Shown here: in pieces, positions 17,392 through 27,519 of the stretch
How positions within the stretch are numbered: the stretch's first letter is position 1
How the letters are laid out: every line of letters starts with the position of its first letter
DNA from: Archaeoglobus sp. JdFR-37
GTDB taxonomy: Archaea; Halobacteriota; Archaeoglobi; Archaeoglobales; Archaeoglobaceae
Assembly (NCBI GenBank): GCA_002010215.1
Contig: MTMY01000007.1
Span: 1-64,000 of the forward strand
Reading direction: 5' to 3'
Length of the DNA: 64,000 bases
Notes under the pieces: model-generated
Told to the model about the DNA's origin: nothing
What the model saw: only the letters and a program-made list of their open reading frames with translations
The model's database searches: none
Program-made: the position numbers and the translations under genes

Positions 17392-18975
17392 ATGAGGGTT
17401 ATTGGCAAGTACTACAGACTTCTCGACAAGTACCTTCCAGAAGGGGATGTAACTCTTATTGAAGAATATGGAATGATTGAGGATGAAGAGCTTGTTGAAG
17501 ATTACTGGATTTACAGGCCCTTTGTCAGGGCTGAGATTGTAAAAATTCTAGATTCAGAAGAATTGAGATACAGAGTCATGGAACCAACCCTCACGGTTGA
17601 AGAATTCGGTGTGCTTGAGGAACTTTATAAGGACATAGGAGATGTTTTGATTCTCAAAGACCTCACTATAGAGATTGAAGCAAAAGAGAAAATTCTTCTT
17701 TCAACTTTTAAGGATTTAATTGGCGAATACGGCATCGAACTCGATCTTATATTGCAATGCAAATATGTCTATTATCTTTTCAGAGATTTCCTTGGTTTTG
17801 GACCTATAGATGCTGTGCTGAACGATCCATATGTTGAGGACATACACTGCGATGGTTACGACATTCCCATTTACCTCAACCACAAAAAGTACGGGAATAT
17901 TGCAACGGACATTAGATTCAGCGAGGAGGAGCTCGACAAGTATGTCCAAGCTCTGGTTCAGATGAGCGGGAAGCATGTGAGCCATGGTAATCCAATTATC
18001 GATGCAACCCTGCCTGATGGGAGTAGGCTTCAGGCAACTTATGGTATTGAAGTTACGCCTCGTGGCTCTTCATTCACCATAAGAAAGTTCACAGAAGAGC
18101 CTCTCACACCTGTGGATCTGATAAGGTTCGGCACCTACACTGCAGAACAGCTGGCGTATTTCTGGCTTGTTGTAGAACACAAGCTCAACCTGATGGTGGT
18201 TGGTGAAACAGCCGCTGGAAAAACAACAACGCTTAACGCCATCCTGATGTTCCTGCCCCCGGAAGCGAAGGTGGTGTCAATAGAGGATACCAGAGAGATA
18301 GCCCTCAAACATGAAAACTGGATTGCCGGAGTTACGAGAGAAGCAGTAACGGGAGATGAAAGGGAAATAAGTATGTATGACCTGCTGAGGGCCGCTCTGA
18401 GACAGCGACCGGACTACATCGTGGTTGGTGAAGTAAGGGGTAAGGAAGCCCAAACACTTTTCCAGGCCATGTCCACCGGGCATGCAGCCTATGCAACACT
18501 TCATGCTGGAGACATCCACCAGACAATTTACAGGCTTGAGACTGAACCGCTGAACGTGCCAAGAAGCCTGATACAGTTCTTGGACGTCATTTCCATTCAG
18601 ACCCAGTGGACTAGAGAGGGGATAAGGAAGAGGAGGGCAAAAAGTGTTTATGAGATACTTGGCATAGATCCTAATGACAAGAATCTCCTGATAAATGAGG
18701 TTTATCGCTGGAACCCTTACACTGATGAGCACTATCCACTCAATCCGCTGAAAAAGCTTGAGAAAATCTCGATCATTAGGGGAGAAGATGTGGGCCAGAC
18801 CATGGAGGAGCTAAACAGGCGTGCAGAATTTCTGGAATTTCTGAACAAGCTCGACATCAGAGATCTCAGAAATGTTACTTCCATGATTCACGCCTATTAT
18901 CGTAACCCCTATGAGTCTTTTGATGTAATCATTAAAGAGGGCAGGAAATATGAGAAGGCTGAAGCAAAAGCCTGA
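17392..18975 (+). CDS. Type IV pilus/type II secretion assembly ATPase (PilB/ArlI/VirB11 family)
   Basis: GETAAGKTT, IEDTRE, LRQRPDYIVVGEVRG, TGH..ATLHA. Confidence 0.95.
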   Translation: MRVIGKYYRLLDKYLPEGDVTLIEEYGMIEDEELVEDYWIYRPFVRAEIVKILDSEELRYRVMEPTLTVEEFGVLEELYKDIGDVLILKDLTIEIEAKEKILLSTFKDLIGEYGIELDLILQCKYVYYLFRDFLGFGPIDAVLNDPYVEDIHCDGYDIPIYLNHKKYGNIATDIRFSEEELDKYVQALVQMSGKHVSHGNPIIDATLPDGSRLQATYGIEVTPRGSSFTIRKFTEEPLTPVDLIRFGTYTAEQLAYFWLVVEHKLNLMVVGETAAGKTTTLNAILMFLPPEAKVVSIEDTREIALKHENWIAGVTREAVTGDEREISMYDLLRAALRQRPDYIVVGEVRGKEAQTLFQAMSTGHAAYATLHAGDIHQTIYRLETEPLNVPRSLIQFLDVISIQTQWTREGIRKRRAKSVYEILGIDPNDKNLLINEVYRWNPYTDEHYPLNPLKKLEKISIIRGEDVGQTMEELNRRAEFLEFLNKLDIRDLRNVTSMIHAYYRNPYESFDVIIKEGRKYEKAEAKA

Positions 18976-20890
18976 TGAGTTGGAAAAATTAAAAGTTTAT
19001 GTACCCACTGCTCTCATCAGATATTACAGAAAAGCATACGAGAAAAATCCAGGGAAGTTCAGAGATCTGGAGAGATCGCTTGTAAGCGCCAGAATACCTG
19101 TTACAGCTCCGAAATATGCTGCAATTGTTACCTTTTATACGCTCCTCGTTTCTCCTCTGCTTGTCATCGCATCTTTATGGATTTCTGATGTGATTTATGC
19201 TGCATACACTTCTCTTTCTAGTTTATCCATTGGTGTGGGGTTTCCGATTGATAAATCAGCATTGGAGAGCGCAGTAAAATTCTCTTCAGAGATAATAGCT
19301 TTTATCCTCCTCTTTTATTTCCTCAGAACGGCATTGTTGAAGTATCCTTCCCTTTATGCTGCCCAGAGAAGGAGCAAGATAGATTCCACGCTTCCTCATG
19401 TTGTGAATATAATGCTGGGGATGGCGAAAGGCGGCAGCTCACCTCTTGAGATTTTCAGGACGATTGCTCAAGAAAGGGCAATTACCGGAGAGGTCGGAAA
19501 GGAATTTTCGATTGTTGTAAGGGATGTTGACTTTTTCCATAAGGACATCATATCTGCTCTTCGCAGCGTCGCCAATACGACACCATCTTCCAAACTCTCT
19601 GAATTTCTTGAAGACCTAATTAGTGTGCTGGAGGGTGGAGGGAGGCTGAGCGAGTTCCTCCAGTTCAAGTCATCCCACTACATAGAGGAAAGGGAAAGGT
19701 ATCACGAGATCTTCCTGAATTCCATGGGTGTGTTGGCGGAAATTTACGTGTCGGTATTCGTTGTGGCACCCCTCTTCGCTCTGATTATCTTTGTGGTCAT
19801 GGGAATGCTTGGAGAGGAAATCGAGAGACTGATGATAGCAATGGTGTACATTTACATCCCCGCTGGGGGAATTGCTTTCCTCTGGCTGGTGTATTCAATG
19901 GTAAAGGGTGAGAAAGTTGAGTGGACGGCTGAGAGACTCAGACCTATCACAATCAAGGCTAGGGTTGTGGAAGGTCAGCGGGAGCCAGGTTTCAAGGTCA
20001 AAACGGGTTTGGTGGCCCTAATCTTAAGAACATTTATACGGCTCAGAAGAACACTTAATCTCTCTCTATTTCTCTACAAGCCCGAGTATCTCCTTTACAT
20101 AACAATACCGGTATCTCTTGCCTTGCTAGCCCTTAGCTTCAACCGGTTGAAGTATGAAACCATTCTGATAGCACTTTTTGCCATCAACGCCTTTCCGTAC
20201 ACCATTGCAAATGAAATCCGGAGTTTCAGGGTGAGAAGACTGGAAAATGAGCTTCCGGAGTTCTTAAAGCAGCTTGCAAGCCTTAATGAAAGCGGTCTGA
20301 CAATAGTTGCCGCCTTAAGAGTCCTTTCCACAACAAACTTGGGTGCGCTCACCAGTGAGGTGATAAACATAAGAAAAGATATTGAGTGGGGAAAGCTTGT
20401 CACAGAAGCGCTTCAGAGGTTTGAGGCACGTGTTGGCAGTGCTGTGGTATCGAAGGTGGTATCGATTTTGATTAAAGCTCTAGAGTCGACAGATAACATA
20501 AAGGCTGCTCTTTTCACGGCTGCAACAGATGCTGAGATGTACCTTGAATTTAGAAAGAGGATGAGCAACGAGATGTTTGTGTATACCATCATAGTTTACA
20601 TGACTTTCGCGGTCTTTCTTTTCACCATCGTTGTCCTTTCAGAAAATTTCATCAATATATTTACGAAGATTGAAGCTCCCCAGACGTTTACTGGAGCAAG
20701 TTTCACCCTTCCAGATGTGGAAATGCTTACAAGGCTCTTTTACCACACAACACTCCTTAATGGGTTCTTCAGCGGCCTTGTGGCGGGAGTAATGGGGAGT
20801 GGGAGTGTTAGAGCCGGTATAAAACACTCCCTGCTTATGGTGGTGGTTTCGTTGATTGTATTCCATTATTTCTTGGGGGTGAGTTTATGA
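18950..20890 (+). CDS. Type IV pilus membrane platform protein (PilC/TadC, two T2SS-F domains)
   Basis: Two repeats of F domain plus TM helices; TTPS motif; coupled to the ATPase. Confidence 0.92.
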   Translation: MRRLKQKPDELEKLKVYVPTALIRYYRKAYEKNPGKFRDLERSLVSARIPVTAPKYAAIVTFYTLLVSPLLVIASLWISDVIYAAYTSLSSLSIGVGFPIDKSALESAVKFSSEIIAFILLFYFLRTALLKYPSLYAAQRRSKIDSTLPHVVNIMLGMAKGGSSPLEIFRTIAQERAITGEVGKEFSIVVRDVDFFHKDIISALRSVANTTPSSKLSEFLEDLISVLEGGGRLSEFLQFKSSHYIEERERYHEIFLNSMGVLAEIYVSVFVVAPLFALIIFVVMGMLGEEIERLMIAMVYIYIPAGGIAFLWLVYSMVKGEKVEWTAERLRPITIKARVVEGQREPGFKVKTGLVALILRTFIRLRRTLNLSLFLYKPEYLLYITIPVSLALLALSFNRLKYETILIALFAINAFPYTIANEIRSFRVRRLENELPEFLKQLASLNESGLTIVAALRVLSTTNLGALTSEVINIRKDIEWGKLVTEALQRFEARVGSAVVSKVVSILIKALESTDNIKAALFTAATDAEMYLEFRKRMSNEMFVYTIIVYMTFAVFLFTIVVLSENFINIFTKIEAPQTFTGASFTLPDVEMLTRLFYHTTLLNGFFSGLVAGVMGSGSVRAGIKHSLLMVVVSLIVFHYFLGVSL

Positions 20891-22485
20891 GAAATGATGG
20901 GGTTTCACCCCTCATTGGCATGATTCTCGGCTTGGGTATAATTGTAGGTTTTATTGGAATCGTTCAGAACTTTTTCGTTCCAGAGTGGATGAAAGCTGAG
21001 GAGTGGGATCATTACGAGCTGGTTTCTTCCGAATTTTCATATCTTGCGAAAATAGTAGCTCTTTCATCAAGCACTGGAAGTCCTAATACCGTTACCATTG
21101 ATATGGGGGTTAAACATTCGGATTATCCTTTTCTGTTAACCCCACCCGACACTGCAAGCTTTATAAAAGTTAGGGAACTTTATATTAATATCACATATTA
21201 TGAGATATTCCCTAATAGGAGTATTGCCTTAAAACCAAAAACGCTTGTGCTTAACACTTCAGCCATCATTCTTAAACCCGATTATGTCTATCTGGATGAT
21301 GTGGAGTTCACTTATGAGCATGGTTATGCCTTCAAGAGATATAGGAATGCGAATGTAACTCTAACGGATCAAAACATGTTCATAGGAGATACTGTGAACA
21401 TCTACATAATCAACACAACCTTTGACTCTCTAGCCACAACCCAGCCGTTAAACTTGGTTTTTTCACCGCTATCCTATGGAGGAGTCATCAGCGTTGCAAA
21501 TGCCACAATCCAGTTTGAGTCTCTAAACCCCAGTTATTGGGAAAGTATTGGAGCCGATGTTACTGGCAATATTGTTGAGGTTAATGTTACAAATGCTCGC
21601 CTGAAAATTGCTACAATTATGGTCACTTCCAGTGGGAGTAACATAACAACAACATCAGATATCTCGCCACAACTAAATGAACTTGTACCTCTATCTTCAC
21701 AACTGAATCTCTTCGTTGGTGAGACTGAGAAGGTTGAAGTGATGGCAAGAGATCAGTTTGGTAATCCGATTACCGGTATAACAATTAATGCGTCTATCTC
21801 AGGAAATATAGGAAATTTTGATGGAAGTTTTGCGACTTCAGAAAAGACGGATGCAAATGGAATTGCAACGTTTTATTTCACAGCTACAAACGAGGGTCTC
21901 GGTACATTAAATTTCGAAGCAGAATCAAAGCAAGCATCACTTCCTGTAGAAGTTATTGACGTTAATACCAGTGTTGAGAAGAAATGGGATCAAGATAAAT
22001 CCAATACTTCAGTCGTTGTGTCTCCTGATTTTGTGTGGACGGGCATATCAGGTGCCAGTAAGATTGTACTGAAAAATGCTGTGAGTCTTACTGGACAGGA
22101 TAATAATAAATTTAATATAATATTCACTCTTTATAATTCAAGCACTTATTATACTTTTGGGGTGGGACTGAAAATAGAAGGAGACGAATATAAAGTTAAA
22201 TCCAAAAAAGTATTTCTATATAAAAATGGACAGGAACTGTTCAATAACAAAGAGCTAAATTCCACCGCATGGGACAATATTTTTACAAATATTGGGACAG
22301 ATATATTGGATGTGGACAATTACGCGAGCAGTGATCAGTCTTCGATTGAAACCTACCTTCAAGAGGTAATTAATTTCCTCCAGAATGCTCCGCCTTCTGA
22401 TCCAGTAAAGCTCGCAGTGCAGAATATTGGCTTCCAAGAGGAGCATGGAGGTGGTGGCTGGAAAGTGGATATTCAGATTATATGA
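20887..22485 (+). CDS. Large pilin-like protein/adhesin with class III signal peptide and Ig-like (Big_1-type) domain
   Basis: MRNDG|VSPLIGMIL... prepilin-like N-terminus; ARDQFGNP...TDANGIATF invasin/Ig motif; many N-glycosylation sequons. Confidence 0.8.
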   Translation: MRNDGVSPLIGMILGLGIIVGFIGIVQNFFVPEWMKAEEWDHYELVSSEFSYLAKIVALSSSTGSPNTVTIDMGVKHSDYPFLLTPPDTASFIKVRELYINITYYEIFPNRSIALKPKTLVLNTSAIILKPDYVYLDDVEFTYEHGYAFKRYRNANVTLTDQNMFIGDTVNIYIINTTFDSLATTQPLNLVFSPLSYGGVISVANATIQFESLNPSYWESIGADVTGNIVEVNVTNARLKIATIMVTSSGSNITTTSDISPQLNELVPLSSQLNLFVGETEKVEVMARDQFGNPITGITINASISGNIGNFDGSFATSEKTDANGIATFYFTATNEGLGTLNFEAESKQASLPVEVIDVNTSVEKKWDQDKSNTSVVVSPDFVWTGISGASKIVLKNAVSLTGQDNNKFNIIFTLYNSSTYYTFGVGLKIEGDEYKVKSKKVFLYKNGQELFNNKELNSTAWDNIFTNIGTDILDVDNYASSDQSSIETYLQEVINFLQNAPPSDPVKLAVQNIGFQEEHGGGGWKVDIQII

Positions 22486-22620
22486 TGTTAAATTCTGGTC
22501 AATCACATTTAGGATGACCTTTCAGAGCTGGCTGGTGCACTTAAAATTACTTGAAATTGGATAGACCAATTCTGATCAGGAGGCTTTAGGTTTTTTACCA
22601 CTTCCTCCACATTATCTACT

Positions 22621-22844
22621 ATGACTACAAAATCCATAAAGGCAAGCTAGGAAACCTACACTAAACTCGTTTGAAATTGCAAGTAAACTGCAGGTTGAGC
22701 TGAAAAAACCGGTCTTTATTGAGGAAGCCGTAAGTATCTGATAAGAACGAAAGTAAGCAATTTAGGCAGATCATGGGAAGTCAACGACGAAGAAGTCGAG
22801 AAAATCAAAAAGGCCATAGAAGGGGGTGGAACGCTTGGAAATAG
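22621..22844 (+). pseudogene. Degraded VapB-type antitoxin
   Basis: MTTKSIKAS*ETYTKLV / EIASKLQVELKKPV.IEEAV / ..LGRSWEVNDEEVEKIKKA..W..WK, interrupted by a stop and frameshifts. Confidence 0.7.
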
Positions 22845-22963
22845 TCTGTTTAGATGCTGATATTCTCATAGACTTTCTAAAGGGAAACGCTGTGGTTATA
22901 AAGGAAATTCAGCAACTTGAGGCTAAACATCAGCTTGTAACGTTGAAATTGTGCTGCAGTTAA
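22835..22963 (+). pseudogene. Truncated VapC PIN-domain toxin
   Basis: (M)EIVCLDADILIDFLKGN... PIN N-terminus; stops after 42 codons; overlaps the antitoxin end. Confidence 0.75.
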
Positions 22964-23005
22964 ATTGTTAGAGCAAAAGGTAAAAATGCCAGACGATTAG
23001 CATCT

Positions 23006-23398
23006 TTACCTGCACAAAACAACCTCAAACCTCCTCGCACAGTAATCGAGCAGGAATCTGAAGTCCTTTGCGAATTCCACTCCCACGACCACCTCTTCGA
23101 CACCTCTTGACGCCTCCACGAAACCATCTTTAGACAGGTTAAGTTCTGAAAGCGTTAATTTGCCATAAGTGCCAACAGTCTCTGCAATGCTGCCGTTGGG
23201 CAAAACAGCAGCCCTTTTATACTGGCTTAGTTCATCAAATCTTAGTTTTTTGAATAGATTTTCAGGAATTATGGCAAAGCCTTCGTAACCGGTATCGAAA
23301 ACGGCAAATGTATTTCCTTCATCAGGATACCTTGTTGAAAGCATAGGATTCTCCAGAACGATCTCTAAAACAGGTGTTCCATTGAGGAGATGTCCCAC
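23006..23398 (-). CDS. Clan AA retropepsin-like aspartic protease (AF_0612-like family)
   Basis: AVFDTGYEG catalytic motif, LPNG flap, VVVGVEF C-terminal motif. Confidence 0.85.
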   Translation of the reverse strand: MGHLLNGTPVLEIVLENPMLSTRYPDEGNTFAVFDTGYEGFAIIPENLFKKLRFDELSQYKRAAVLPNGSIAETVGTYGKLTLSELNLSKDGFVEASRGVEEVVVGVEFAKDFRFLLDYCARRFEVVLCR

Positions 23399-23404
23399 AG
23401 CGTG

Positions 23405-23713
23405 TCACCTCCACCCCCTTTTTATCAGGGGTCTGATGGTTCCGTGGAAATTATTCTCACGTCTCTTGGGCCCACTCTCTTCTCACGCAAAATTTCGGCG
23501 AGTTCATCAAGATTAGAGGCCTGAGCGATTAGTTGATCACCCATATATGCTTTAAAGTAAACTGTTTTCCGGTAGAGGGATGAAAAAGTAATTCTTGAGA
23601 GCATCCTCAACTACTTTGGATATGGCTCCTTTGCTGGAACCGTACATCTCTCTTACGATCTCTCTCAGCTTCTTTTCAGTCTCATCGCTGAGTGAAATGA
23701 TCAGCGTTCCCAT
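23405..23713 (-). pseudogene. Frameshifted ribbon-helix-helix protein, upstream partner of the aspartic protease
   Basis: MGTLIISLSDETEKKLR...GAISKVVEDALKNYF joins SSLYRKTVYFKAY...LDELAEIL if one base is removed from the A5 run at 23583-23587; probable second shift near the C-terminus. Confidence 0.7.
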
Positions 23714-24011
23714 ATAATTAATTATTAATTAAATAGTAATTAAATTTTTTGAATCGAATGGCTACATGCATAATTCAGAATAATTCTTGTATTCTGAAGA
23801 TCCGCGATCTAATCTTCGAGCCTGAAATAATCCATTGGATAATCCCGTGTTCAAATCTCAATTACTTGTATTTGCAATACATCCGATAGAATCCAAAGAA
23901 AGATTGTACAGGAACTTTGTTCTCCGACAATCAAACGATTTCACAAAAATAAATACAGCTTTACAACATCCACCGCAACTAATATCTTTTAGAAATCCCA
24001 TAATATCTACT

Positions 24012-24275
24012 ATGCCAAAGGCTCCCTATGTTAGGGAGTACAAGCAGAGCAAATCCAGAGGAAAAGACTACATGATCAGATGTGATGGGTGTGGCAGGAA
24101 AGTGCCCAGATTCAAGACTTTTGTGGGCTATCGAGGCTTTAGAGTTGATTATGAAATCCAGAGGATGGTGGGGAGTAAAAACATCCACACAATAAGCATC
24201 AAAAGCTATTACTGCCCCAAATGTGCAAGGAATCTGGGAATTGTTCAGCCTGGGAAGCTTGGCAGGAGACGATAG
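24012..24275 (+). CDS. rps26e: Ribosomal protein eS26 (S26e) homologue
   Basis: MPK...RG...IRCDGCGRKVPRFK...YCPKCARNLGIV matches the eS26 pattern (C-x2-C-x3-VP-x2-K ... YC-x2-CA-x2-xGIV); 87 aa, very basic. Confidence 0.8.
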   Translation: MPKAPYVREYKQSKSRGKDYMIRCDGCGRKVPRFKTFVGYRGFRVDYEIQRMVGSKNIHTISIKSYYCPKCARNLGIVQPGKLGRRR

Positions 24276-24310
24276 GCTGCAATAGAAGTATATGGTGCAT
24301 TGGGGCGCAA

Positions 24311-24595
24311 TCATCCGTCACTTGGCAAATCCCACCTATCACTCGGATTTCGCTGGAGATATTTCTCCACCAGAACTATGTCCGGCTCCACACCAAAGAA
24401 GTTAGCTAGGCTTAGGATCATGAATAGCACATCTGCCAGCTCCTCTTCAACGTCGTCCTTGACACCTTTCCTTACAGCCTCTGCAAGCTCCCCTACTTCC
24501 TCAAATAACACAGCCAGCAAAAACAACTCTCCCGACTTCCTGTCTAGATCATAGTACCTTTTTTTTATTTCATCTCTCAAATCTTTCACACTCAT
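24311..24595 (-). CDS. MazG-like NTP pyrophosphohydrolase
   Basis: EEVGELAEA...EEELADV motif. Confidence 0.9.
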   Translation of the reverse strand: MSVKDLRDEIKKRYYDLDRKSGELFLLAVLFEEVGELAEAVRKGVKDDVEEELADVLFMILSLANFFGVEPDIVLVEKYLQRNPSDRWDLPSDG

Positions 24596-24664
24596 CACAC
24601 CTGTCAAGTCTGAACCTCCTGAAGGCGATTACCTTAAATACACTATAATCTTTTTTTTAATGCA

Positions 24665-26110
24665 ATGCCTGAAACCTCTGAATATTACCAGCATGACTAC
24701 ATTGTTATTGGCTGTGGTGGATTTGGATTAGCGGTGATAAAAGACTTATCCAGAACAAACAAAAAGGTTCTTGCTGTTGACATCAATAGGGAGAAGGTGG
24801 AAGTTCTCATTGAACAGGGGATTGAGGCTGTAGAAGGGGATGCGAAAGATAAATCCTTTTTCGACCGGATTGATTATTCCAGAGTTTCAGCAGTTCTGAT
24901 ATTCACCCCTGACGATGACGTGAACACCTTTGCGGTTGAAGAGCTCAGAAAGAGGAGCATTGGAATATTCATAGTCGTCAGAGCTTCCGACATTAAAGCA
25001 AAGGAAGAGATGGAGCAGAAGGGAGCTGACTATGTCGTAACGCCTTATGAAGCGATGAAAAGTGTTGTTGTCAGCGCCCTGAAAAGGATGGAATCTATAA
25101 GGCGAGTCAAGAGGCTCCGGGAAGTTCTTGAGACCGTCAAGAACGGTAAGCTCGGAATATTCACTCACGACAACCCTGATCCAGATGCAATATCTTCTGC
25201 TATGGCTCTCAGAGAAATAGCAAGGCATTATGGTGTTGAGGCGGACATTTTGTATTTTGGTGAGATATCTCACCAGCAGAACAAAGCGATGGTAAATCTC
25301 CTGGAGATCTCCATTCTGAGTGCAGAGGATATAGATCTCTCTGCTTATAGGAAATTTGCTCTGGTGGATTCTTCTGCACCCGGCGTCAACAATTCAATTC
25401 CGGAAACAATAAAACCGAGCATCGTAATTGACCACCATCCCGCAGATAATGTGGAGGGTGAATTTGTAGATCTTCGGGACGATGTTGGAGCCACAGCAAC
25501 GATTCTCGCTGGCTATCTCCAGGATTTGAAAATAGTTCCCAGCAGAACTCTGGCAACAGCCCTATTCTTCGGAATACAAACTGAAACTGAGGAGTTCAGA
25601 AAGAACACCAGAACTGCTGATTTTACGGCTGCAGCATTTCTCTATCCGTTTGTTGACCATGAGATGATTGAGAAGATGGAGGGACCAGCCCTCTCAACTG
25701 AAACTCTTGATGTACTTGGTACAGCAATAAAGAACAGACAGGTATTCTCGTCATTCGTGATCTCCTTTGGCGGCTTCATAAACGACAGAGATGCTTTGCC
25801 TCAGGCTGCCGACTTTTTGCTGAAGCTGGAAGGAATCTCAACTGTATTAGTCTTTGGAATTTTGAAGGATGTAGTTTATATTTCAGCGAGAAACAAGGAT
25901 GTCAGGATAAATATCGGCGAGGTTCTGAAGAAGGCCTTTGGCGATGTAGGTAGTGCTGGCGGACATGCTCATGCTGCAGGTGGACAAATTCCTCTCGGCA
26001 TTTTTGGAGACGTTTCAGACAGAGAAATGCTCTCAAAGCTTGTTACAGAGGCAGTGAAACGAAGATTCTTGAATGCTGTAGGAATTGAACACACACCTGA
26101 GAAAATCTGA
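24665..26110 (+). CDS. TrkA-N (RCK) domain fused to DHH/DHHA1 phosphoesterase
   Basis: GCGGFG Rossmann fold, HDNPDPDA, IDHH, GGHAHAAGG. Confidence 0.92.
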   Translation: MPETSEYYQHDYIVIGCGGFGLAVIKDLSRTNKKVLAVDINREKVEVLIEQGIEAVEGDAKDKSFFDRIDYSRVSAVLIFTPDDDVNTFAVEELRKRSIGIFIVVRASDIKAKEEMEQKGADYVVTPYEAMKSVVVSALKRMESIRRVKRLREVLETVKNGKLGIFTHDNPDPDAISSAMALREIARHYGVEADILYFGEISHQQNKAMVNLLEISILSAEDIDLSAYRKFALVDSSAPGVNNSIPETIKPSIVIDHHPADNVEGEFVDLRDDVGATATILAGYLQDLKIVPSRTLATALFFGIQTETEEFRKNTRTADFTAAAFLYPFVDHEMIEKMEGPALSTETLDVLGTAIKNRQVFSSFVISFGGFINDRDALPQAADFLLKLEGISTVLVFGILKDVVYISARNKDVRINIGEVLKKAFGDVGSAGGHAHAAGGQIPLGIFGDVSDREMLSKLVTEAVKRRFLNAVGIEHTPEKI

Positions 26111-26121
26111 AAGTCATCTCT

Positions 26122-27006
26122 TCATCTTCTCTCTATCCTCCCCATAATCTTGTCATAGGTGGTTCTCAGGTCCTCTCTTCCCACTGAACAAACGTGAATG
26201 ATTGCATAAGCGATCTCTGGCATCTCTTTTCGAAGCTTTCTGGCAATCTCCTCTGTCAACTCATCGGCTTCTCTGACTGTCATGTCTCCTCTCACAGCTA
26301 TATGCATGTCAAGATGGATGCTGTCCTTACCCATGTATGTTGCTATTATGTCGTGGACATTCTCAACCTCTCTGAACTCCTCCACAACACTTCTGACTTT
26401 TCTGTAAAAGGAGTCATCCGGGCTCATCCCCAGTAACATTTCGGCATTGCTCCTAAAAAGAATGTAGCCGTTGTATGCGATTATTAAGGCGATAATCATT
26501 GACAGCAAACCATCAACATGAGGGTAAAATGTGGAAAGAGCTATACCTATAGAACCGCCAGTGCCTGATATTACGTCGTTTTTCAGCTCGAATCTGGCAG
26601 CGACCTCCTCAGGTAGCTGATATTTTCTAGAGTATAGAAAGACAGCAAGCAAAACCAGTGTAGTGACGATCATTATTGAAAGGGCAAAGCCTGGCATGTA
26701 GACTTCAGATGGGTTGAGGAACCTTCTGAAACCCTCAACAAACAGCTCCAGTGAGACAACGGTGATGAAAACGATTCCTGCCACCATGGAGCTGAGATTT
26801 CTTGCCAAGCCATGGCCGAGGGGGTGGCCATAGTCTGCTGGTTTCTCCGAAATCTTTGATGCGTAATGCAAGACGATCAAGACAACAATATCCACAAGAC
26901 TGTGGAGAGCTTCAGCCAGAATAACAAGGAAACCGCTAATTAAGTAGCCAACGACTCGGGCAGCGAAGAGAAGAATGTATATTGTCATCACTTTTTTAAG
27001 AAGCAC
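26122..27006 (-). CDS. Cation diffusion facilitator (CDF) transporter
   Basis: AEALHSLVD, KPADYGHPLGHG, C-terminal dimerisation domain; start approximate. Confidence 0.9.
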   Translation of the reverse strand: MLLKKVMTIYILLFAARVVGYLISGFLVILAEALHSLVDIVVLIVLHYASKISEKPADYGHPLGHGLARNLSSMVAGIVFITVVSLELFVEGFRRFLNPSEVYMPGFALSIMIVTTLVLLAVFLYSRKYQLPEEVAARFELKNDVISGTGGSIGIALSTFYPHVDGLLSMIIALIIAYNGYILFRSNAEMLLGMSPDDSFYRKVRSVVEEFREVENVHDIIATYMGKDSIHLDMHIAVRGDMTVREADELTEEIARKLRKEMPEIAYAIIHVCSVGREDLRTTYDKIMGRIERR

Positions 27007-27141
27007 GTGACCACTGAGACAAAGTGGCAAATAAAGATTATCCCATCCTGTTTCGGGGAGCAATTGGGGAGAGATACTTTTAAATACCCTTCCCGATAGT
27101 TGCCAAAGCTAAAAGTTTACGATGATGGGAGGCATGAATAC

Positions 27142-27519
27142 ATGAGCAGGTTGAGAAAGCTGCAGAGGAGAAAGAGCAATCCCAATCTTTCCGCTCTCAT
27201 AGACACGTTGCTGGAGGAAGGAGCGAAAAACAAGGCTACTATATGGAAGGACGTTGCAGAGAGACTTGCAAAGCCAAGGAGACTCTATGCAGAGGTGAAC
27301 CTCTCGAAAATCCAGAAATATGCCAGAGAAGGCGAGACGATTCTGGTGCCGGGAAAAGTTCTGGGAAGTGGTGAAATAGATAAGAAGGTAGATGTTGCCG
27401 CCCTTTCATTCTCTGAAAAGGCAAAATCAAAAATTGAGACTTCTGGTGGGAAATGTCTGACGATACTGGAACTTGTAAGAGAAAATCCGAAAGGAAGCAA
27501 CGTCAGGATTATTGTGTGA
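27142..27519 (+). CDS. rpl18e: 50S ribosomal protein eL18
   Basis: KSNPNL...IWKDVAERL.KPRR..AEVNL, VPGKVLGSG. Confidence 0.97.
   Translation: MSRLRKLQRRKSNPNLSALIDTLLEEGAKNKATIWKDVAERLAKPRRLYAEVNLSKIQKYAREGETILVPGKVLGSGEIDKKVDVAALSFSEKAKSKIETSGGKCLTILELVRENPKGSNVRIIV

Follow-up and report, generated by a model that had tools for sequence, protein, structure and literature searches.

A divergent eS26 gene of Archaeoglobus, inherited within its family with repeated loss, may encode an optional anti-SD-masking factor of the 30S subunit

The analysed DNA (hereafter the window) is a 64,000-nucleotide stretch of contig MTMY01000007.1 from Archaeoglobus sp. JdFR-37. The gene under study and its surroundings contain the following features:

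22500..24011, no strand: AT-richer patch (PIN-like remnant, clan AA aspartic protease, frameshifted partner, RHH gene), GC 0.398
23974..23995, + strand: putative BRE and weak TATA-like element, ~25–32 nt before the ATG and without an SD, from upstream comparison; less canonical than in homologues
24012..24275, + strand: eS26 (rps26e / arCOG04305) gene of the euryarchaeal–Aenigmarchaeal subfamily, 87 aa, from homology and fold
24081..24092, + strand: first Zn knuckle, Cys24-x2-Cys27, invariant in homologues; Zn binding presumed from the family
24213..24224, + strand: second Zn knuckle, Cys68-Pro-x-Cys71, in the CPxCA form that marks the subfamily in alignments
24311..24595, − strand: MazG-family pyrophosphohydrolase (PF03819, E 1.2e-12), a convergent neighbour found in the same place in locus L074
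24665..26110, + strand: TrkA_N-DHH-DHHA1 gene, from its Pfam domains

The ORF at 24012–24275 (+) is intact and consists of 87 codons; its product is basic (pI 10.4, with 22 K/R against 5 D/E) and contains two CxxC knuckles that lie 30–50 residues apart, as is characteristic of the eS26 family. The original prediction of an intact, basic 87-aa ORF with both halves of the eS26 zinc finger is borne out, and the motifs that it quoted are present. Cys24, Cys27, Cys68 and Cys71 are kept in 19/19 close and 33/33 distant homologues, and these four residues are predicted to ligate zinc.

As also predicted, the gene lies outside any ribosomal protein operon, the nearest run (rpl18e-rpl13-rps9) beginning 2.8 kb downstream. 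Its GC content is 0.458, compared with 0.448 for both 24012–27063 and the whole genome and 0.398 for the upstream patch. The AT-rich, decayed patch in which the gene had been placed is real upstream (22500–24011, GC ~0.40, with remnants), but it only abuts the gene and does not include it. Within the patch, a truncated PIN-like gene (~22835–22965, +; read by eye) lies 3′ of an antitoxin-like remnant; the aspartic protease (23006–23398, −) is intact and matches TIGR03698 at the cut-off; its frameshifted partner (~23425–23590) lies upstream of it; and the RHH gene (23552–23713) has a weak RHH_6 match. Farther upstream, at 17392–22485, inspection by eye suggests genes for a type II/IV secretion ATPase-like and a TadC-like protein; 3′ of the latter lies the gene of a 532-aa protein whose N-terminus is pilin-like and which carries an Ig-like domain of the Big_1 type. 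Downstream of eS26, MazG is followed by TrkA/DHH, a CDF-type transporter (named by eye) and the L18e operon, an arrangement shared with the same-genus locus L074. The gene is thus not an orphan of an accessory patch, as is indicated by its GC content, its synteny in a congener and its relatives elsewhere in the class. A chimeric assembly, raised earlier as a possibility, is excluded by contigs of two other studies that bridge the gene and its downstream core-gene neighbours (X3, 23825–27500; X4, 23874–26555); X1 contigs, which may come from the source sample, are not counted, and among the X3 and X4 pieces listed none covers the whole 6 kb.

Sequence, profile and fold all agree that the ORF is an eS26 homologue, so that the original identification holds. 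The Pfam search proposed as its check gives a mixed outcome: PF01283 is the top Pfam match (E 0.0031) but scores 18.4 bits, under the 27-bit gathering cut-off. NF006816 S26e is likewise the top NCBIfam match (E 1.2e-6) at 28.8 bits, under a 118-bit cut-off. PF01283 reaches its cut-off in 0/96 genomes of the class, and because this cut-off, which is a threshold and no biological feature, is missed, the gene annotation is missed too. In a single-sequence phmmer search against the PDB, the nine matches that follow the top one are eS26 chains. The top match itself, a plant heavy-metal-associated protein (E 3.7e-5), was rejected, having neither the second knuckle nor support from the fold. With a 19-sequence profile (A1), chains 9e71_BX of a Pyrobaculum entry (E 4.9e-6) and 9fs6_b (E 1.2e-5) lead the PDB matches. 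In the reciprocal search, profile A2 retrieves 668 proteins, mostly PF01283-labelled among the 120 matches listed; the intermediates P0026, P0032, P0034 and P0036 score above the PF01283 cut-off, and the orthologue Ferp_1775 carries the arCOG04305 assignment.

The fold points the same way. The AlphaFold model of the protein is of modest confidence (pLDDT 66.8). Foldseek returns 304 matches, 3 of them at E ≤ 0.001; the best 50 are all ribosome entries, ranks 1, 2, 4 and 5 are chains named eS26, and S. solfataricus eS26 is among the matches. VIA-align over 48,161 chains places four small-subunit chains best, three of them named eS26, with 80–83 aligned residues, an rmsd of 3.8–3.9 and Z values of 6.3, 6.2, 5.0 and 4.9 (Z below 8 is weak on its own); unrelated zinc fingers follow at Z 3.5. 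By homology and fold, the ORF is a genuine, divergent eS26. It falls outside the TACK S26e equivalog, given its 28.8 of 118 bits and the occurrence of the TACK motifs in 0/42 Archaeoglobi rows.

We then compared the distribution of the gene among Archaeoglobi. Matches are present in 42 of the 96 class genomes (33 of 73 high-quality ones) and in 13 of 21 genera, all within the window's family and one per genome. Forty, the window's among them, are full length at 70–84% identity; another is truncated by a contig end, and the last is decayed. The decayed copy, in genome G045 (L122:470–760), has lost one Cys and its 3′ part and runs into an apparent tRNA gene; it looks like a loss in progress. Over 401 genomes of the phylum, the A2 profile is positive in 33 of 70 family genomes besides that of the window (G000) and in 0/4 sister-family/order genomes, and among the 326 others it gives two weak partial matches (G142 and G298), neither convincing. 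The G142 match, the one of the two that was inspected, is a zinc ribbon of 56 aa whose knuckles lie close together, and was rejected. The profile adds no Archaeoglobi carriers among genomes at least 90% complete, and no TACK-type eS26 scores above cut-off in non-carrier genomes of the class. A. fulgidus is without S26e.

On a species tree built from S13, S4 and RpoD (95 of 96 genomes; one genome without two of the markers was left out), eS26 presence takes 8 changes against a shuffled mean of ~31, and carriers occur in every deep branch of the family. Gene and species distances are correlated (Mantel rho 0.82, p 0.001, 38 genomes). With 39 of the 40 genes recovered, and over the 206 of 741 pairs that are unsaturated, the median dN/dS is 0.052 and the maximum 0.20, and the window gene differs from that of a congener at 11 positions over 75 bases (25 codons), none of them non-synonymous. 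Synonymous sites are saturated against relatives, and the gene's closest kin all come from Archaeoglobi, at a mean identity of 78%, with TACK proteins reaching 31% at most. The gene is thus a single-copy gene under strong purifying selection, and the simplest reading is that the family ancestor had eS26, followed by vertical descent with about seven independent losses and one decaying copy. The original prediction took the gene to be horizontally acquired, a view that fails for any recent transfer in light of the 42/96 genomes, the Mantel correlation and the genome-average GC. Vertical presence across Archaeoglobales, which it named as the observation that would speak against it, is largely what we find (13 of 21 genera, all deep branches). 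The survey of presence/absence and dN/dS that it suggested does reveal a patchy gene (42/96), but one that is vertically inherited under a low median dN/dS.

Signals upstream of the gene bear on how it is expressed. Of 40 Archaeoglobi eS26 loci, the search pattern picked up 39, and an SD occurs in none of these 39 upstream regions; TATA-like hexamers are concentrated between −25 and −29 upstream of the homologues. The BRE call at 23974..23995 follows the BRE consensus. The eS26 transcript is probably leaderless, as judged from these upstream patterns. The genome itself uses SD motifs, as was claimed: with crude ORF calls, ATGs are preceded by an SD peak between −9 and −13 and by a TATA peak between −27 and −32, and G000 appears to have both SD-led and leaderless-type mRNAs. 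About 50% of single and first genes are reported to be leaderless in A. fulgidus (PMC3035285). The 16S anti-SD is intact in 5/5 complete relatives; an altered anti-SD in carriers was considered and rejected, as three carriers and two non-carriers have the identical 17-mer. G000 itself yielded no convincing 16S 3′ end. Among genomes at least 90% complete, 33 with and 42 without the gene, eS26 presence is associated with neither strong-SD density (p 0.68) nor leaderless signal (p 0.12), in a test that relies on crude pattern counts and on kin that are not independent. Positive genomes are somewhat smaller (median 1.6 versus 1.9 Mb, p 0.008), a difference confounded by kinship.

Outside the Archaeoglobi, the A2 profile is positive in 6/6 genomes of the Methanopyri-labelled phylum, 2/2 Hydrothermarchaeota-labelled genomes, 1/1 further Methanobacteriota-labelled genome and 118/121 genomes of the Aenigmatarchaeota-labelled phylum. 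In Aenigmatarchaeota the gene is often directly upstream of an apparent rpoF-DUF655-ksgA run or of a type IV pilus/secretion ATPase (by eye; L128–L152, L066). Some proteins carry an N-terminal eS26 domain fused to Ig-like/BatD-type domains (216–325 aa; L067:1010–2869, L069:6001–6978, L073:917–1876; P0021, P0022, P0030), and one fused protein of 619 aa has a transglutaminase-like domain too; in the three genomes checked, no copy besides the fused one was found. A third, short group without the N-terminal arm (P0040–P0058, P0146), which includes a Micrarchaeota-labelled member, has support of 99/91.

Archaeoglobi eS26 has a mean identity of 41–45% to the Methanopyri, Hydrothermarchaeota-type and Aenigmarchaeal groups and of 27–28% to TACK and Asgard. 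The CPxCA motif is present in 76/76 Archaeoglobi, Aenigmarchaeal, Methanopyri and fused rows versus 0/25 TACK/Asgard rows, a contrast that is partly circular because the motifs were picked after alignment and the relatives were recruited with Archaeoglobi-weighted queries. Trees of 91–93 columns always recover an Archaeoglobi clade (99/98–99) outside a TACK+Asgard clade (99/96–99). The sister group differs by tree: Aenigmatarchaeota with 43 rows (97/92), other euryarchaea with 105 rows (98/84). In the search for a donor the trees conflict, and AU rejects no topology tested. Grouping Archaeoglobi with TACK and Asgard has an AU p of 0.10 in the small set and 0.61 in the large set, where the constrained tree is 10 lnL units above the free one, and grouping them with other euryarchaea has an AU p of 0.41 (small set).

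Three histories can be set against these data. We lean towards vertical descent from a euryarchaeal or archaeal ancestor as the origin before the family ancestor. A single ancient transfer into the Archaeoglobaceae ancestor, from a Methanopyri/Hydrothermarchaeota-like thermophile or an Aenigmarchaeal symbiont and followed by inheritance and loss, is a serious competitor for that origin, albeit a somewhat less probable one. The empty sister-family/order genomes (0/4), the lack of a convincing match in 326 other genomes of the phylum and the pairing of Archaeoglobi with Aenigmatarchaeota in the 43-row tree all fit a transfer, but the larger tree gives a euryarchaeal clade that the small set also accepts (p-AU 0.41), two or three further losses add little cost when the gene has already disappeared about seven times in the family, and 93 columns are too few to fix a donor. 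The TrkA-DHH gene lies directly 3′ of eS26 in four Methanopyri-type loci (L068, L070, L071 and L072), one gene away in the window and 2.2 kb away in L050; this adjacency was counted for the transfer, and it fits either vertical descent or an ancient transfer. By contrast, the earlier version, in which the gene is a recent orphan of an AT-rich accessory patch or a misassembly, is scarcely credible. The gene does abut a patch with remnants, 54 of 96 class genomes are without a match and a tree with Archaeoglobi beside TACK+Asgard is tolerated; the constrained trees, however, demand only sisterhood with TACK+Asgard, which is not recent transfer. Average GC, saturated synonymous sites, a congruent tree, nearest relatives that are all Archaeoglobi, independent contigs and congener synteny argue against this version. 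The window eS26 probably belongs to an old subfamily common to Archaeoglobaceae, Methanopyri, Hydrothermarchaeota-type genomes and Aenigmatarchaeota, and would be an anti-SD-masking 30S factor.

The suggested role is modelled on the S. solfataricus protein. According to PMC11698992, that protein is loosely attached at the mRNA exit channel, where it touches uS11 and eS1 and winds around the 16S 3′ end; there is no steric room for it and the SD duplex together, and it inhibits toeprints on SD-led mRNAs while sparing leaderless ones. By analogy, (i) the Cys4 zinc ribbon and basic arms of the window eS26 would attach loosely to the platform of the 30S, next to uS11 and eS1; (ii) the docked protein would wrap the 16S 3′ end and exclude the SD:anti-SD duplex; and (iii) this exclusion would shift initiation to leaderless mRNAs in genomes with both mRNA types. 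The eS26 mRNA, being apparently leaderless, would escape its own inhibition, and a tuning factor, unlike a core subunit, can be lost. By this analogy, an optional subunit at the SD/anti-SD site appears to be the likeliest role. That the protein binds the 30S subunit is likely; that it acts by competing with SD pairing is a more cautious proposal, which we favour only slightly. Two observations speak against this mechanism: eS26 presence follows neither strong-SD density nor leaderless signal, and A. fulgidus has no eS26 despite the large share of its mRNAs reported to be leaderless.

Genomic context provides some links to the ribosome. Of 35 Archaeoglobi loci, many of them cut short, 7 have the gene adjacent to the rps13-rps4-rps11-rpoD operon. 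In two of the seven (L047 and L055; 6001–6255), eS26 stands at the head of this run, separated from rps13 by 60 nt and sharing its strand, and in the other five it is convergent on rpoD. Of the uS11 substitutions, 113/194 fall on branches without eS26 versus ~50% for S13, S4 and RpoD (Fisher p 0.02–0.03), a rate signal that is post hoc and small. In the uS11 alignment (loci L153–L249), the loop before the PGPG motif is near-fixed in carriers and changes repeatedly without eS26 (non-carriers versus carriers: Thr 5 versus 0, Lys 8 versus 1); this co-variation may be taken as a hint. The core-gene behaviour of eS26 in Aenigmatarchaeota (118/121) also counts for a ribosomal link. In five genomes, eS25 gives weak partial matches only, none over cut-off (7 of 14 controls also match), and eS30 is over cut-off in 0/5.

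Two other roles deserve consideration. As in eukaryotes, eS26 could be a stable, stoichiometric 30S subunit that helps 16S 3′-end maturation or mRNA accommodation and leaves SD pairing unblocked. Its near-universal single copy in Aenigmatarchaeota, its strong conservation and a presence unlinked to SD or leaderless usage would suit such a subunit. We regard it as unlikely, since these genomes use SD heavily whereas bound S. solfataricus eS26 clashes with the SD duplex, and repeated loss is unlike a core subunit. Slightly less likely still is a function off the ribosome, as an extra-ribosomal Zn-finger protein for RNA binding or Zn storage. The replacement of TACK motifs and an identity of 20–36% to TACK/Asgard proteins mean that rRNA contacts may differ, and the fusions to Ig-like/transglutaminase domains in three genomes suggest a domain open to other uses; these subfamily-specific changes and fusions, together with the variable neighbourhood and the eS25 and eS30 results, are what an extra-ribosomal protein has in its favour. 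Against it stand the eS26 fold and basic arms, kept over the whole length, the uS11-operon adjacency, the Aenigmarchaeal core-gene behaviour and the uS11 rate shift. The optional SD-competing subunit is the reading that we retain.

The presence of eS26 in Archaeoglobi is not new and was only overlooked. In their File S5, Yutin et al. 2012 (PMC3353972) record S26e in two of three Archaeoglobi, Methanopyrus and Nanoarchaeum, and Arcpr_0730 and Ferp_1775 are listed as misannotated S26e (Table S4/File S5). That study covers three Archaeoglobi genomes, and the portions of it considered here hold no loss map, selection test or subfamily description. Later papers (PMC7531240, PMC11698992 and PMC12993045; 2020–2026) limit eS26 to TACK, Asgard and eukaryotes, and one of the three takes this restriction as support for eukaryote origins; eS26 is missing from the list of proteins absent from Euryarchaeota in the relevant part of PMC9932298. 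The claim that eS26 is absent from Euryarchaeota hence echoes recent statements but conflicts with the 2012 record, and a large, conserved Archaeoglobi family contradicts the restriction to TACK, Asgard and eukaryotes. We found no paper devoted to Archaeoglobi eS26 in literature whose coverage excludes most subscription journals, nor in print the family-wide vertical inheritance with repeated loss, the Pfam-missed, motif-defined subfamily or the near-universal presence in Aenigmatarchaeota.

Given these losses, cultured species offer a way to test what archaeal eS26 does: the carriers F. placidus, A. profundus and A. veneficus and the non-carrier A. fulgidus allow a test of anti-SD masking. 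A broader and more tentative possibility, which we think may well not hold in full, is that eS26 is pan-archaeal and older than the TACK/Asgard split, that a distinct subfamily below current HMM cut-offs survives in Archaeoglobaceae, Methanopyri, Hydrothermarchaeota-type genomes and nearly all Aenigmatarchaeota, and that the Archaeoglobi form masks the anti-SD as a facultative factor expressed from a leaderless mRNA, its roughly seven losses being matched by relaxation of a uS11 loop. If this reading were true, eS26 could not be used to argue that eukaryotic ribosomes arose from TACK/Asgard archaea, and comparing cultured sister species that have or lack the gene would amount to a series of natural knockouts.

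Among known proteins, the window eS26 is closest to those of its own class. It shares 75% identity over 87 aa with Ferp_1775 of F. placidus, a direct orthologue, and 79% with the A. veneficus protein, both of which UniRef names S26e; from the Archaeoglobi S26e of Yutin 2012 (Ferp_1775 and Arcpr_0730) it differs only in host genus and neighbourhood. With S. solfataricus eS26 (PDB 9FS6/9FS8) and the TACK/Asgard family it has in common the Cys4 ribbon, a similar length, a fold match and the residues G17, G28, V31-P32, K35, D46, A72 and G76-I77, and S. solfataricus is likewise a host with SD-led and leaderless mRNAs. It differs in its ~25–27% identity, its scores below the NF006816 and PF01283 cut-offs and its motifs: PKKR, PxDKA and C[VI][SN]CA of TACK/Asgard are replaced by PY-x-R, PR[FYWH]K, G[FLM][RK][ILV] and CPxCA in the window's subfamily. 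Moreover, eS26 is universal in TACK/Asgard but patchy in Archaeoglobi, and eS25 and eS30 give nothing over cut-off in the five genomes searched. The eukaryotic eS26/Rps26 has the same fold and Zn ligands, whereas the window protein has a shorter central segment and is without the long C-terminal tail; the eukaryotic protein is a bona fide subunit chaperoned by Tsr2 (PMC11698992). Methanopyri and Aenigmarchaeal eS26 share 36–53% identity and motifs with the Archaeoglobi proteins and form one subfamily with them, but are universal or nearly so in their own groups, in contrast to a presence in under half of Archaeoglobi.
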